A stretch of DNA of 54,922 nucleotides, from assembly GCA_964640545.1 (NCBI GenBank), contig CAZXHL010000006.1, forward strand, positions 1-54,922, written 5' to 3'. A program made the position numbers and the translations under genes. A model generated the notes under the pieces. It was not told the DNA's origin. It made no database searches and saw only the letters and a list, made by a program, of their open reading frames with translations. Origin of the DNA: an uncultured Bacteriovorax sp. (GTDB taxonomy: Bacteria; Bdellovibrionota; UBA2428). Shown piece by piece: positions 1-52,571 of the stretch. Every line of letters begins with the position of its first letter. Position 1 is the first letter of the stretch.

Positions 1-96
1 GTAGCACTCCCCTTGTCCTGAGTAATGAATATAAATATTTAATATGACTTAGAAAGGCTACTACACGCGCCCTTACAACACTTAAGCGCGCACAGT
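1..96 (+). repeat. Partial copy (3' half, cut by window edge) of the ~220 bp palindromic intergenic element
   Basis: GCACTCCCCTTGTCCTGAGTAATGAAT...AAATATTTAA.ATGACTTAGAAA...CAACACTTAAGCGCGCACAGT closely matches the 3' half of the copy at 15607-15827. Confidence 0.9.
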
Positions 97-29149: not shown

Positions 29150-29369
29150 GTTGTACGCCAGAAGTGCTTGGTAGAGCGCGCGAGTATCATTTCTAAATCA
29201 GTTGAAATATTTGTGTTCATTACTCAGGACGAGGGGGAGCGCAGCCCCCCTCTGGCAAGTTTGCACTTGCCATTCACCCCCATAGTCCTTCGACTGAACC
29301 CAGATATTTCAACTGATTTAGAAACGCTCCATCTTTTTTGCGCTCTACCAAACACTTCTGGCGCACAGT
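29150..29369 (-). repeat. Complete ~220 bp palindromic intergenic element (copy 3, core on minus strand)
   Basis: Arms CGCCAGAAGTGCTTGGTAGAGCGC...TTTCTAAATCAGTTGAAATAT / ATATTTCAACTGATTTAGAAA...GCGCTCTACCAAACACTTCTGGCGCACAGT; core 29226-29289. Confidence 0.92.
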
Positions 29370-49705: not shown

Positions 49706-51223
49706 GTGCTATTTTTCACAATTCTTCTGCTGATTCTCTTTGTTCTGAGGTTATGGCTTAGCGGTTTTACAGGCATTCATCCCGATGAAGCTTACTATTG
49801 GGTCTGGTCTCTCGATCTGAAGCTAGGGTACCTTGATCACCCCCCCATGATCGCTTGGATCATTGCAGCGGGGAGATGGATCATCGAAACGATCTCCCCC
49901 AACTACCTCCAGTTAGAATACCCGGCTTTTTTCTCAGTCGTTAAACTTAAGGCCGGCCCCTTCTTTTTGAGCTGCGTAGCTACTCCAGTTCTCGTCGGGA
50001 AATGCATCGAGTGGGTTCAAAGAGCCCCGCTTCGAGTGACCCAAATGATTGTCCTCCTGGTGACTCCGCTTCTGTTTGTTGGTCCACAGATTGTGACTCC
50101 CGACACCCCTCTGTTTTTTTCCTGGACACTCTGCTTGCTCATGGCGATTAGACTTCAAAAAAGACGCTATTACAAAAATGATACAGGAGACTTGTCTCCC
50201 CCACTATGGTCCATAGCGGTCACCCTTGGAATCGCCATGGCATTTGCAGCCTACTCCAAATACACTGCCGTACTTCTTGCTTTTCTAGTATTGATTTCAG
50301 GCGCGGGTCTTTGGAATGCTATGATTTGTGCATTGGTTTGTAGTGTTCTCATTGCCCCCTATGTCTATTGGCTGGCAACTACTGGTGTAGCGGAAGAAGC
50401 TGGAATCTTCTTCCAGTTTGGCAACGCCATTGGCGATGTTCTGAAACCAAATAATTTTAAATTTGTTGGAGATCTCTGGGCTTCTCAAATCCTATTTTGG
50501 ACACCGATGATTTTTCTTGGAGTCTTCGGATTTCTTTTTACAGATGTTAGACGTTTCTTTCTATCCGACAAAAAACACCGTCTCTCTGGAACGTTATTCA
50601 TATGGGCCATTGCCCCACTAGTTCTCTTCTCTCTCACCGCCTTAAAAAGACCCGCCGAAGCTAATTGGCCCCTTGTCGGAGGCATTGCCGCCATCGTGAT
50701 GTGCGTGGCCAGACTTCGACTAAGAATGTTCTCTCTCACGCTACTCACGATTCAAAACGTTGCTATCATTTCAGTTGCGTGGCTTGTCCTAACTCAAGCG
50801 CCAAAACTCTCTGTATTTTTTGAGGACATTTCCCCGAGGGCTTCCGCCCTACTGGAAAAGCCTTCTAGGTTGCGCGAATTTGAGGGGTGGCCAAGACTTC
50901 ACACCCTACTCAAAGATGCTGTCCTCAATGAAGACTCCCCGATTGTTGTAGAAAGTTTTCAGATACTGTCATCGCTTTTATTTGTGAATTCCTCGCTAGA
51001 GGAAGAGAACAAGCTCAAGCTATATTTCTGGGAAGAAGGGTCGAGAAGAAGCGAATTCAATCGCACACCCAAATATCTTCTCGCAAAAGAAGAACTCAAC
51101 AAAGGACATTGGCTCCTCACAAGAGATCAGAAAAATGTTCCGGATTGTAGGCTCTACCAGGGACTGATCAAAAGTGTGTCGGAAGTGTATTTCCTCTATA
51201 CCTGCAAAGGTCTGAGGCCATAA
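49706..51223 (+). CDS. ArnT/PMT-like polyprenyl-sugar-dependent glycosyltransferase (GT-C fold)
   Basis: PDEAYYW.WS..L..GYLDHPPM, TPDTPL, SKYT, EANWP; multiple TM segments. Confidence 0.85.
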   Translation: MLFFTILLLILFVLRLWLSGFTGIHPDEAYYWVWSLDLKLGYLDHPPMIAWIIAAGRWIIETISPNYLQLEYPAFFSVVKLKAGPFFLSCVATPVLVGKCIEWVQRAPLRVTQMIVLLVTPLLFVGPQIVTPDTPLFFSWTLCLLMAIRLQKRRYYKNDTGDLSPPLWSIAVTLGIAMAFAAYSKYTAVLLAFLVLISGAGLWNAMICALVCSVLIAPYVYWLATTGVAEEAGIFFQFGNAIGDVLKPNNFKFVGDLWASQILFWTPMIFLGVFGFLFTDVRRFFLSDKKHRLSGTLFIWAIAPLVLFSLTALKRPAEANWPLVGGIAAIVMCVARLRLRMFSLTLLTIQNVAIISVAWLVLTQAPKLSVFFEDISPRASALLEKPSRLREFEGWPRLHTLLKDAVLNEDSPIVVESFQILSSLLFVNSSLEEENKLKLYFWEEGSRRSEFNRTPKYLLAKEELNKGHWLLTRDQKNVPDCRLYQGLIKSVSEVYFLYTCKGLRP

Positions 51224-51230
51224 AGCTTGA

Positions 51231-51447
51231 ACTGTGCGCGGTAAAAAGTGGAAAGCCCTAAAAGCTCAGGCTCTCAATCATTCTAAATATTTGGATTTGT
51301 TACTCAGGACAGGGGGAGCGCAGCCCCCCTCTGGCAAGTTGGCACTTGCCATTCACCCCCATAGTCCTAAGCACAAACCAACTATTTAGAATGATTGAGA
51401 ACCCGAACTACGGCTTTTATGGCTTTCCACTTTTTACCGCGCACAGT
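51231..51447 (-). repeat. Complete ~217 bp palindromic intergenic element (copy 4, core on minus strand)
   Basis: Arms ACTGTGCGCGGTAAAAAGTGGAAAGCC...CTCAATCATTCTAAATA / TATTTAGAATGATTGAG...GGCTTTCCACTTTTTACCGCGCACAGT; core 51306-51368. Confidence 0.92.
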
Positions 51448-51452
51448 TTTAG

Positions 51453-52571
51453 CTAAATCGTAATCTTCGATCTTCGCTTGAAGAGCCACCAATCGAGAAA
51501 CAATAAGAATAAATTAGGTGCTCCGATCACAATCCAGGCCATAATTTCATATTTAGAAAAGCTTGCAATTGAAGCACGCTGGTACCATGTCGCCATTGCA
51601 AAATATGCGGTCCAATAACCAATAACCACAACCAAGCCAATAGCCACCGCACGGTTTTTCGCCGTCCTTCTATTGTCTAAAGCCAATAGAAAGCTCAACG
51701 GCACAAACAACAAACAAGCCAATCCTACTGCAAATCTTCTTGCAATCTCGACCCAGTTGCCACGAGGATCCGCTCCAGATGTTTTCAACTCTTCCCGCTT
51801 TTCAATTAACGCTTGCCACCCCTGACTAGCTGGAGAATTTCGCCCACCTGCCATATCGACGGAATAATCTACAAACAACTTATATTCGTCAAAACGTATA
51901 CGTTGAATGCGATTGCTATCGTGATCTTGCACTAAGATCAACCCATCAAAAAGCCTTAGGCTACCAAGCCCGGAATCACTCCCTTCCCACCTTCCATGAC
52001 TAGCTGAAATGGAAGTGTTCTTGGTAAACGAGCTTTCATCATATAGAAAAACTCGTTTTAGCTCCTGGGTAAACGGATCAACCTCGTCCACAAAAACGAC
52101 CATTCCAAGAAAACCCTCAGCGAAAGTTCCAGACCGAAGAACATTGGTTACCTTCTTTCGATAAATCGTATCAATCGCAATTTCAAAATTACGGTTACCT
52201 TTTGGTCCTAAATCAAAAGAAACCCAGATGGATGCCATCGCAACAAGAACACCTAGAAAAAGACCAGGCTTCAACAGTCGTGCGGGCTCATACCCCATTG
52301 ACTGCAGTGCAAGTAACTCTCGATCAGAAGACATCCTTCCAAAAACGATCAATAAGGAGAATAGAAATGAAACGGGTAGAACAACCGGCAAAAAACTCAC
52401 ACAAAGACCAGCGACAAGCCTTAAGATCAAGCTCCAATCCAGGCCTTGACTCACAATCAGACCAGAAAGACGAATCCCCTGGAGGCCGAGCAAGACTAGT
52501 TCCGCAACGACAAGGCCGACCAGAAAAGTCTTTATGAGCTCTTTTAAGAAGTATTTATCTAACTTTGTCAT
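51453..52571 (-). CDS. lptF: LptF/LptG family LPS export permease
   Basis: LDKYFLKE, LPVSFL, GRMSSDRELLALQSMG; 3 TM, periplasmic domain, 3 TM. Confidence 0.82.
   Translation of the reverse strand: MTKLDKYFLKELIKTFLVGLVVAELVLLGLQGIRLSGLIVSQGLDWSLILRLVAGLCVSFLPVVLPVSFLFSLLIVFGRMSSDRELLALQSMGYEPARLLKPGLFLGVLVAMASIWVSFDLGPKGNRNFEIAIDTIYRKKVTNVLRSGTFAEGFLGMVVFVDEVDPFTQELKRVFLYDESSFTKNTSISASHGRWEGSDSGLGSLRLFDGLILVQDHDSNRIQRIRFDEYKLFVDYSVDMAGGRNSPASQGWQALIEKREELKTSGADPRGNWVEIARRFAVGLACLLFVPLSFLLALDNRRTAKNRAVAIGLVVVIGYWTAYFAMATWYQRASIASFSKYEIMAWIVIGAPNLFLLFLDWWLFKRRSKITI

Follow-up and report, generated by a model that had tools for sequence, protein, structure and literature searches.

This study concerns a repeated, hairpin-forming element, probably a miniature inverted-repeat transposable element (MITE), in the genome of an uncultured Bacteriovorax species (Bdellovibrionota). 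The window, meaning the whole stretch of DNA that was analysed (54,922 nt; CAZXHL010000006.1 of assembly GCA_964640545.1), is one entire contig (C6) of a 2.9-Mb draft genome (G000) that comprises 219 contigs and has 46% G+C. Towards its right end, copy 4 of the element occupies the gap between two convergent genes, at 49706-51223 (+ strand) and 51453-52571 (- strand). For copy 4, what we call the core sense is the + strand, whereas the original prediction, which was made from the sequence of the window, used the same term for the - strand, its reverse complement. The features of this locus are as follows.

51221..51223, + strand: stop codon TAA of the upstream gene (49706-51223), 7 nt before copy 4
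51231..51447, core sense on +: copy 4, probable MITE of subfamily A, 217 nt, running from ACTGTG to CACAGT
51231..51254: left terminal inverted repeat, left side of helix 1, partner 51423-51447
51255..51268: outer internal loop, short side, 14 nt
51269..51294: helix 2-3, left side, 26 nt, partner 51378-51403
51306..51310: inner stem AGGAC, partner GTCCT at 51364-51368
51312..51329, + strand: core hairpin 1, with a G-run/C-run stem
51333..51350, + strand: core hairpin 2, 7-bp stem with loop TTGGCA
51404..51422: outer internal loop, long side, 19 nt, containing the extra GCCGTA of the original prediction (+ strand TACGGC, 51409-51414)
51423..51447: right terminal inverted repeat, right side of helix 1
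51453..51455, - strand: stop codon (CTA on the + strand) of the convergent gene (51453-52571), 5 nt after copy 4

When folded as DNA, copy 4 forms one long hairpin with a free energy of -81.2 kcal/mol on the + strand (z = -17.2) and -88.7 kcal/mol on the - strand (z = -19.8), and 0 of 200 shuffled sequences equalled the native fold on either strand. A scan of the window with Rfam gave 0 matches at the gathering score; the best sub-threshold match reached 17.7 bits against a cut-off of 84 (E = 0.2), which is at chance level. A hammerhead-like reading of CTGAGTA/CGAA around the inner stem was judged by eye against the motif as remembered, and was rejected on the order of its parts and its core letters. 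The window also carries three other copies of the element.

1..96, - strand: copy 1, subfamily B, truncated by the contig start
15607..15827, core sense on -: copy 2, subfamily B, with a 9-of-10 direct repeat at its flanks
29150..29369, core sense on +: copy 3, a lone variant with a degenerate left end (GTTGTAC)

An nhmmer profile built from the three complete window copies identified 50 loci in the draft genome, 25 of which are full length (217-232 nt) while the others are cut at contig ends. The full-length copies were sorted into group A (five, including copy 4), group B (nine, including copy 2), groups C (three), D (three), E (one) and F (three, among them a 232-nt copy at C107:5683-5914), with copy 3 standing alone. 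All groups share the same anatomy. From the ends inwards, a terminal helix of 25 bp is followed by an internal loop, a second helix of 26 bp, a further small loop, the 5-bp inner stem AGGAC/GTCCT and an asymmetric core (51-54 nt) that contains two small hairpins. A 130-nt derivative at C12:36279-36407 has lost internal sequence and carries group-F-type ends. Numerous contigs begin or finish within copies (window positions 1-96, C8, C26, C28, C35, C49, C82 and C86, among others), and the repeat family is a main cause of the fragmentation of the assembly into 219 contigs. A search of the genome for the terminal pattern returned 95 termini, many of them at contig ends with other interiors. The repeat family is therefore larger than the 50 loci.

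We conclude, with a probability of about 0.8, that the element is a MITE mobilised in trans by DDE-fold insertion sequences of the same genome and its relatives. It is small and non-coding, occurs in multi-copy subfamilies, has inverted ends in common with a transposase-bearing element, and is missing from orthologous sites elsewhere. The shared ends are inverted sequences of ~27 nt (ACTGTGCGC...) that are common to the MITE and to insertion sequences of 1.2-1.5 kb. In the draft genome, an element of 1,200 bp (C2:29459-30658) has MITE-type inverted ends surrounding an open reading frame (ORF) of 361 aa, and a second, partial transposase gene, 60% identical to the first, lies at a contig start (C75:9-413) where it adjoins a subfamily-B-type end. 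At loci L069, L070 and L074-L076, ACTGTGCGC... ends likewise flank a DDE-fold protein, and complete relatives from a Bdellovibrionota metagenome-assembled genome record and from metagenome contigs have them too. Loci L069, L070 and L074-L129, together with the C2 element, make up an insertion-sequence family of 1.2-1.5 kb with TA at the junctions and a single transposase of ~360 aa with zinc-finger, helix-turn-helix and DDE-fold parts.

The ends of the MITE subfamilies are matched to those of three co-resident transposase lineages. End type GGTAAAAAGTGG, which copy 4 has in common with transposase-bearing elements, occurs in MITE groups A, C and D and in one transposase lineage; end type GCT(T/A)AAGTGTTG occurs in group B and its matching lineage; and end type CCGGGAA..GTTGG occurs in groups E and F and copy 3 and in a third. 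The end types of relatives also account for the termini found at contig ends in the draft genome. Homology of the MITE interior with the insertion sequences was considered and rejected, as alignment is limited to the terminal 27-35 nt plus a motif of 7-10 nt, GTTGGCAC. In the insertion sequences, this motif is situated 45-55 nt inward from the transposase-upstream (left) end; in the MITE, it makes up the loop of core hairpin 2. Because it occurs in both, we weakly infer that the MITE core may descend from the region just inside the transposase-upstream end, and that the core sense (+ for copy 4) may correspond to the direction of the transposase. A sigma-54-like motif (TGGCAY-N5-YYGCW) is located 28-44 nt before the start of the transposase match at L069, L070, L082, L085 and L088, and also at about 29505-29525 of C2. 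The strict pattern occurs at 5 of 46 loci, with 0 control hits on the opposite strand and 0 inside the gene, and the motif may function as a binding site or as the promoter of the transposase gene.

Classification of the partner transposase relied on domain models, an alignment and a predicted structure. A large protein collection contains 361 relatives of the protein, all lacking a Pfam domain and mostly encoded on contigs of 1-2 kb; for several of them the source uses the name "transposase-like". A Pfam scan of the transposase found no family at E<=0.1 except weak helix-turn-helix (HTH) matches. NCBIfam gave an N-terminal IS1 match (NF033558) of 37 bits against a cut-off of 100, covering only the N-terminal 115 of 199 positions, as well as a zinc-finger match of the IS1/IS1595 type at the N-terminus, and no IS630 model matched. 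Residues D120, D207 and D248 are invariant in an alignment with 25 relatives. A structure model (mean predicted local distance difference test score, 82) found its best solved-structure matches among DDE transposases and integrases: ISCth4 (6xg8, E = 1e-4), retroviral integrases, and Mos1, which ranks 16-32 with E values of 3e-3 to 9e-3. Template modelling scores are low (0.2-0.35), as expected with multi-domain chains. On the strength of this model, the transposase is predicted to have a DDE (RNase-H-like) fold with a putative catalytic D207-D248 spacing.

Two established families were weighed as homes for this partner, and the family models support neither. Membership in IS630/Tc1/mariner was set aside because the transposase fails the catalytic-domain models of that family, even though a TA target is found in the wider family described here. 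Membership in IS1 was set aside on the missed score of the curated model. The target duplication of IS1 is 8-9 bp long; in a 9-bp register, at least 7 of 9 positions match in 4 of 23 insertion-sequence copies against a null of 2%, and TA alone is seen in the majority. The most suitable label for the partner is that of an unclassified insertion-sequence family with a DDE fold.

The sequences into which these elements insert are AT-rich and centred on TA. Of 24 copies from the wider insertion-sequence family, at least 12 have TA immediately beyond each end. The bases found before the 95 termini of the draft genome include TA (29 termini), TA+A (23) and TTTC (15), such that TA or TA+A precedes ACTGTG at 52 of 95 termini, compared to a genome TA frequency of 4%. 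Over 4-17 nt, the flank on one side of a copy is the inverted complement of the flank on the other. We attribute this complementarity to a symmetric AT-rich target (approximately AAGCTT-TA-AAGCTT) and do not count it as belonging to the element. The copy at C45:8036-8284 has flanks that are complementary at 16 of 17 nt beyond the element (GCCTGAATTTAA on one side and TTAAATTCAGGC on the other), and it looks as if it had been inserted in the loop of a pre-existing small hairpin. Two kinds of target duplication were evaluated, and neither is well supported. A short direct 4-mer (AGCT or AATT) occurs near the ends in 11 of 25 copies against a null of 13%, but a 4-bp duplication positioned 3 nt outside the ends is not favoured: the 4-mers are mostly palindromic and fit the symmetric target, which can explain why they appear as direct repeats. 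A duplication of 9-10 bp yields a mean of only 0.3-0.7 matches above the null; copy 2 carries its 9-of-10 repeat.

Gene context was called from ORFs for 24 assessable full-length copies, with one further copy at a contig end. Fifteen are located between convergent genes, four between divergent genes and five in tandem contexts, which is an excess of convergent sites over the expected 25% (p = 1e-4). In most convergent contexts, stop codons lie 0-12 nt from at least one end of the element. Copies fill these convergent gaps and leave both reading frames intact because the target sites carry TAA on one strand and TTA on the other, as convergent stop junctions do.

Related genomes were compared for the presence of the element. 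BLAST searches detected the element in 2 of 41 relatives and in 2 of 20 genomes of the order, namely the draft genome and a second genome, G010, whereas the transposase is present in 12 of 41 relatives. Genome G001, which belongs to the same genus and whose genes are about 70% identical, has no element detectable with either BLAST query and carries the transposase (7 matches). At the G001 site orthologous to copy 4, the gene pair overlaps by 11 nt with no element; at the site orthologous to copy 3 (L034), the genes are 18 nt apart with no element and a small hairpin between them. The C-termini of all four genes at these two sites are equal in length in G001 and in the draft genome. Presence and absence at orthologous sites thus amount to two empty sites in a single comparator genome of ~70% identity: the left neighbour at the copy 2 site is not syntenic, and the neighbourhoods of the copies on C44 and of one copy on C8 are rearranged in G001. 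The hairpin at L034 has the sequence AAACTAGGAC-GGT-GTCCTAGTTT, and its stem resembles the inner stem AGGAC/GTCCT of the element, a likeness that may be due to chance.

The full-length copy from G010 (L040; G010:C62:8478-8702) is 97% identical to window copy 2, and its flanks have no match in the draft genome. G010 represents another genus, and genes common to the two genomes are about 65-75% identical. As judged from these identities, the near-identical copy points to recent horizontal spread.

On the MITE reading, events would proceed as follows. The transposase of the 1.2-1.5 kb insertion sequences would presumably bind the terminal ~27 nt of each arm, and insertion would take place in short AT-rich, roughly palindromic sites (TTWA/TWAA) centred on TA. 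Such sites would be common where convergent stop codons meet, and copies would come to fill these gaps. The lopsided loop and the asymmetric 53-nt core would have been passed from the ancestral MITE to every subfamily. As the shared GTTGGCAC motif suggests, sequence immediately internal to the transposase-upstream end of the parent was probably the source of the core.

Several observations weigh against this account. Flush TA on both sides is seen in only 3 of 25 MITE copies, TTTC stands before 15 of the 95 termini, and target duplications are indistinct. The transposase has no Pfam family, so its family assignment is tentative, and helices 2-3 and most of the core have no detectable homology to the insertion sequences beyond the 7-10 nt motif. 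G010 holds copies of the element but gave no transposase match with the query used (its genome is 90% complete), while G001, at about 70% identity, is too distant to fix the exact element boundaries. Contigs from four metagenome DNA runs (X1, X9, X10 and X21) contain no empty-site joint at copy 4; they break at 51230/51231 and 51447/51449 and then run into other flanks. Transposition itself was observed nowhere in the data examined. Finally, simple cut-and-paste of a duplex does not predict the compensatory changes in the inner stem and core, the retained loop asymmetry, or the orientation of subfamilies relative to GC skew. These last features bear on the original prediction, in which one strand of the element acts in a folded form.

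Conservation of pairing was assessed with an alignment of 26 sequences: the proposed structure pairs 94.3% of the cells, and in 38 of its 70 pairs both sides have changed. None of 500 shuffles reached either value, and sliding the partner by 1-3 columns lowers pairing to 36-46%. RNAalifold alone found compensatory change in 34 of 58 pairs. Both small core hairpins keep their stems by compensatory changes (4 of 7 pairs of core hairpin 2 have changed on both sides across subfamilies, with its loop conserved), and the inner stem AGGAC/GTCCT has become AAGAC/GTCTT in subfamily D. An alternative pairing of the core G-run with a distal C-run has lengths that covary in A, B and F, and this pairing fails in D. 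Covariation in the terminal 25 pairs follows the end types of the three co-resident transposase lineages and is not proof of folding, because protein recognition of double-stranded ends explains this terminal part. In addition, the copies are related, and apparent covariation in helices 2-3 could also arise from symmetric sites of protein binding further in. Pairing of the whole arm is under constraint, which means that either a hairpin (of DNA or RNA) or symmetric binding sites play a part in propagation. The clearest signs of genuine folding are the changes in core hairpin 2, the switch of the inner stem in D, and the clustering of within-subfamily variation in the loops; they do not say which strand folds, nor whether it does so as DNA or RNA.

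The asymmetry of the arm is a part of the original prediction that holds across the family. It had held that the 5' arm always carries extra bases about 30-45 nt from the end (CTCAGA in copy 2, GCCGTA in copy 4). In the - strand fold of copy 4, six unpaired bases (CCGTAG) do lie on the 5' arm, at about 51408-51413/51414 of the + strand. Mapped over all full-length copies (25 from the draft genome and 1 from G010, the 25 partial copies at contig ends being excluded), the outer internal loop is longer on the same arm in 26 of 26, by 3-7 nt, although these copies share ancestry and are not independent events. The two sides measure 14-22 nt and 18-28 nt and are located 26-45 nt from the ends. Within subfamilies, the outer loop is the most variable part of the element, yet its length asymmetry is constant. 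In subfamily B, mean pairwise differences are 0.38 and 0.18 for the two loop sides, compared to 0.03-0.08 for the helices and 0.04 for the core, and the same trend, with variation highest in the outer loop, is seen in subfamily A. The loop asymmetry is real and was inherited from the ancestral MITE by every subfamily.

A bias in wobble pairs, in contrast, does not extend across the family. The prediction was right that copy 4 pairs through five G-T wobbles in its chosen orientation: the two stretches it quoted contain three and two of them when the - strand is read, and the arm alignment in the opposite orientation has 0 G-T and 4 A-C. Core hairpin 1 of copy 4 likewise has an A-C mismatch on the + strand that is G-T on the - strand. 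Copies 2 and 3 are mixed (3:4 and 5:3), also as described. Summed per copy over 25 copies, G-T pairs number 76 in the orientation of the prediction and 52 in the other. Counting each mismatch site once per subfamily gives 45 G-T against 31 A-C (binomial p = 0.14), so the count over all copies reveals no significant bias towards one strand. By subfamily, the ratios are A 6:4, B 10:15, C 6:3, D 3:1, E 6:0, F 11:3 and copy 3 3:5, which are heterogeneous (p = 0.003) and reversed in B, the largest subfamily, and in copy 3. Mutations private to single copies are balanced (23:17). The minimum free energy of the RNA fold is lower in the orientation of the prediction in 21 of 25 copies, to which the G-rich core contributes. 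The G-T bias across the family is weak and inconsistent, and the five wobbles of copy 4 are a subfamily trait rather than a family-wide mark of polarity. Judged by the refuting condition that the prediction set for itself, the bulge side comes through and the wobble count does not. Mutation bias between replication strands was considered as the source of the G-T excess and rejected, since it fits A and B but not C, E or F, and the private mutations are balanced.

Orientation was compared with both transcription and replication. In the five tandem contexts, the core is co-directional with the flanking genes in two and opposite in three, and convergent contexts expose both strands; we therefore see no preference relative to flanking transcription. 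GC skew served as a proxy for replichore. It is strong around copies (absolute value 0.04-0.15) and stable for contexts of 3 to 20 kb, and 39 of 50 loci were kept for this analysis, the others having too little context or an ambiguous strand. The core-sense strand of full-length copies falls on the G-rich strand as follows.

Subfamily B: 9 of 9
Subfamily C: 3 of 3
Subfamily E: 1 of 1
Subfamily F: 3 of 3 (weak skew)
Subfamily D: 1 of 3
Subfamily A: 0 of 5
Copy 3: 0 of 1

The overall figure is 17 of 25 (p = 0.11), while a Fisher test of A against B, a split made post hoc, gives p = 0.0005. With the halves at contig ends included, the ratios are about 14:1 for B and about 3:8 for A, although the orientation of halves is less sure and one broken copy yields two of them. 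In the window, skew of the + strand is negative; the B copies there face the - strand, and the A and lone copies face the + strand. When a contig carries two copies, the two always differ in orientation and in group. Orientation relative to replichore is thus non-random within subfamilies and not significantly biased overall.

These patterns belong to the case for a different explanation, in which one folded DNA strand acts at the replication fork in the manner of attC or IS200/IS605, the hairpin extruding on the lagging-strand template, the loop marking the active strand and the orientation being fixed relative to replication. The retention of the loop asymmetry despite hypervariable sequence, the compensatory changes that preserve pairing throughout the arm and within the core hairpins, and the opposed orientations of B and C on one side and A on the other would all fit, as would the presence of three Y1_Tnp (PF01797) genes in the genome (C95:4536-4823, C120:6385-6732 and C81:10940-11191; ORFs of about 228 aa). 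However, none of these genes is on a contig that bears a copy, and the partner with matching ends has a DDE fold and is neither a tyrosine HUH enzyme nor an integrase. Long terminal inverted repeats and TA-centred sites are unlike IS200/IS605, the G-T excess falls on the G-rich strand in A and B but on the other strand in C, E and F, and the overall orientation ratio is 17:8. Furthermore, family-specific orientation bias is known for ordinary insertion sequences, with mixed behaviour of IS630 (PMC3971601). We consider this explanation unlikely.

A narrower proposal retains the MITE and asks only that its conserved asymmetric loop and core type set the polarity of its uptake at the replication fork, with the core sense of B and C on the G-rich strand and that of A and copy 3 on the opposite one. 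We consider this equally unlikely. If true, it would mean that a folded single strand, rather than the duplex, is read during mobilisation or retention, and that a hairpin-polarity mechanism exists in a DDE-type element. The claim that the element acts as one specific folded strand is partly supported: conserved pairing and the asymmetry in 26 of 26 copies speak for folding, while the G-T count, the orientation towards neighbouring transcription and the lineage-linked covariation of the terminal pairs speak against one specific strand. A MITE is a recognised kind of element; a single-strand or fork-linked step may take part in its movement, and the single-strand mechanism is unproven.

Retention of the element by the host as an RNA is quite improbable. 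According to this explanation, a hairpin of ~95 bp in the 3' ends of transcripts would serve as a barrier, processing site or insulator between convergent genes, with the RNA of one strand being functional. The placement of 15 of 24 copies exactly between convergent stop codons, the greater conservation of stems than loops within subfamilies, and the very stable RNA folds of the copies (-108 to -146 kcal/mol) agree with it, and MITE hairpin RNAs that affect neighbouring transcripts have been described for Correia/NEMIS and ERIC (PMC2229807). Convergent genes, however, transcribe both strands and single out neither, the tandem copies split 2:3, and a simple terminator scan at copy 4 gave 0 sites. 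The orthologous G001 sites lack copies, so the genes manage without them, and the TA-rich target explains the position after stop codons equally well. That the element is a host repeat of the REP/BIME type, its termini being shared with insertion sequences by coincidence or the insertion sequences targeting the repeat, is hardly credible: it is extragenic, palindromic and present in many copies, most without a clean target duplication, but its ~27-nt termini match and covary with the ends of three insertion-sequence lineages, it occurs in only 2 of the 20 genomes from the order, copies in different genera being 97% identical, and at 217-232 nt it is far above REP size.

We also compared the element with known systems; a literature search found no publication on MITEs of Bdellovibrio-type bacteria. 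Among bacterial MITEs, RUP is linked to IS630-Spn1. Correia/NEMIS of Neisseria and RUP of Streptococcus pneumoniae are described as MITEs with TA-centred insertion (PMC2229807). The element resembles them in being small, non-coding and multi-copy, with inverted ends, TA at the junctions, a stem-loop, a position next to gene ends and possible RNA-hairpin effects. It differs in being twice as long and nearly all one hairpin, with an asymmetric loop and a 53-nt core bearing two hairpins, in having three subfamily groups whose ends are matched to three transposase lineages, and in having a partner transposase without a Pfam family. Stowaway-type MITEs belong to the Tc1/mariner/IS630 superfamily. 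They are similar to the element in the junction TA of the wider insertion-sequence family, in the DDE-fold transposase of ~360 aa with an N-terminal DNA-binding region, and in the MITE hairpin; the transposase described here differs in having no IS630-model match, Mos1 only as a low-ranking fold match, and an N-terminal zinc finger of the IS1/IS1595 type. A bacterial member of the Tc1/mariner/IS630 group, ISY100, duplicates TA (PMC2170065).

The ERIC/IRU repeats of enterobacteria are also imperfect long palindromes in transcribed intergenic regions, and orientation matters for the effect of ERIC on upstream transcripts (PMC2229807). The element, in contrast, shows no orientation preference toward flanking genes, and an autonomous partner has been identified for it. 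For REP/REPIN-RAYT and IS200/IS605, orientation is linked to replication (PMC5027513 and PMC2817692). They share with the element the formation of hairpins by repeats, and the subfamily-specific association with skew recalls them, but they lack long terminal inverted repeats and depend on Y1 HUH enzymes acting on single strands, whereas the element has 25-bp inverted ends and a DDE-fold partner. Membership in either system was rejected because the Y1 HUH genes are unlinked to copies and the 25-bp inverted ends are present. Sites of the attC type are about 60-140 nt long and occur in cassette arrays beside an integrase. The element is like them in being an imperfect palindrome with extra bases on one arm, and unlike them in that its copies have ordinary convergent genes as neighbours; no search directed at an integrase was made.

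As a main cause of the fragmentation of the draft genome, the repeat accounts for the many contigs that end within copies, and it is tied to a widespread but unannotated family of transposases for which Pfam has no model. For gene annotation, its copies mark true gene ends. It also illustrates cleanly how a single MITE interior can be combined with the termini of three diverged transposase lineages, and near-identical copies occur in two genera. Should the loop asymmetry, the hypervariable loop and the skew-linked orientation be confirmed in closed genomes, they would be relevant to the recognition of hairpin MITEs.

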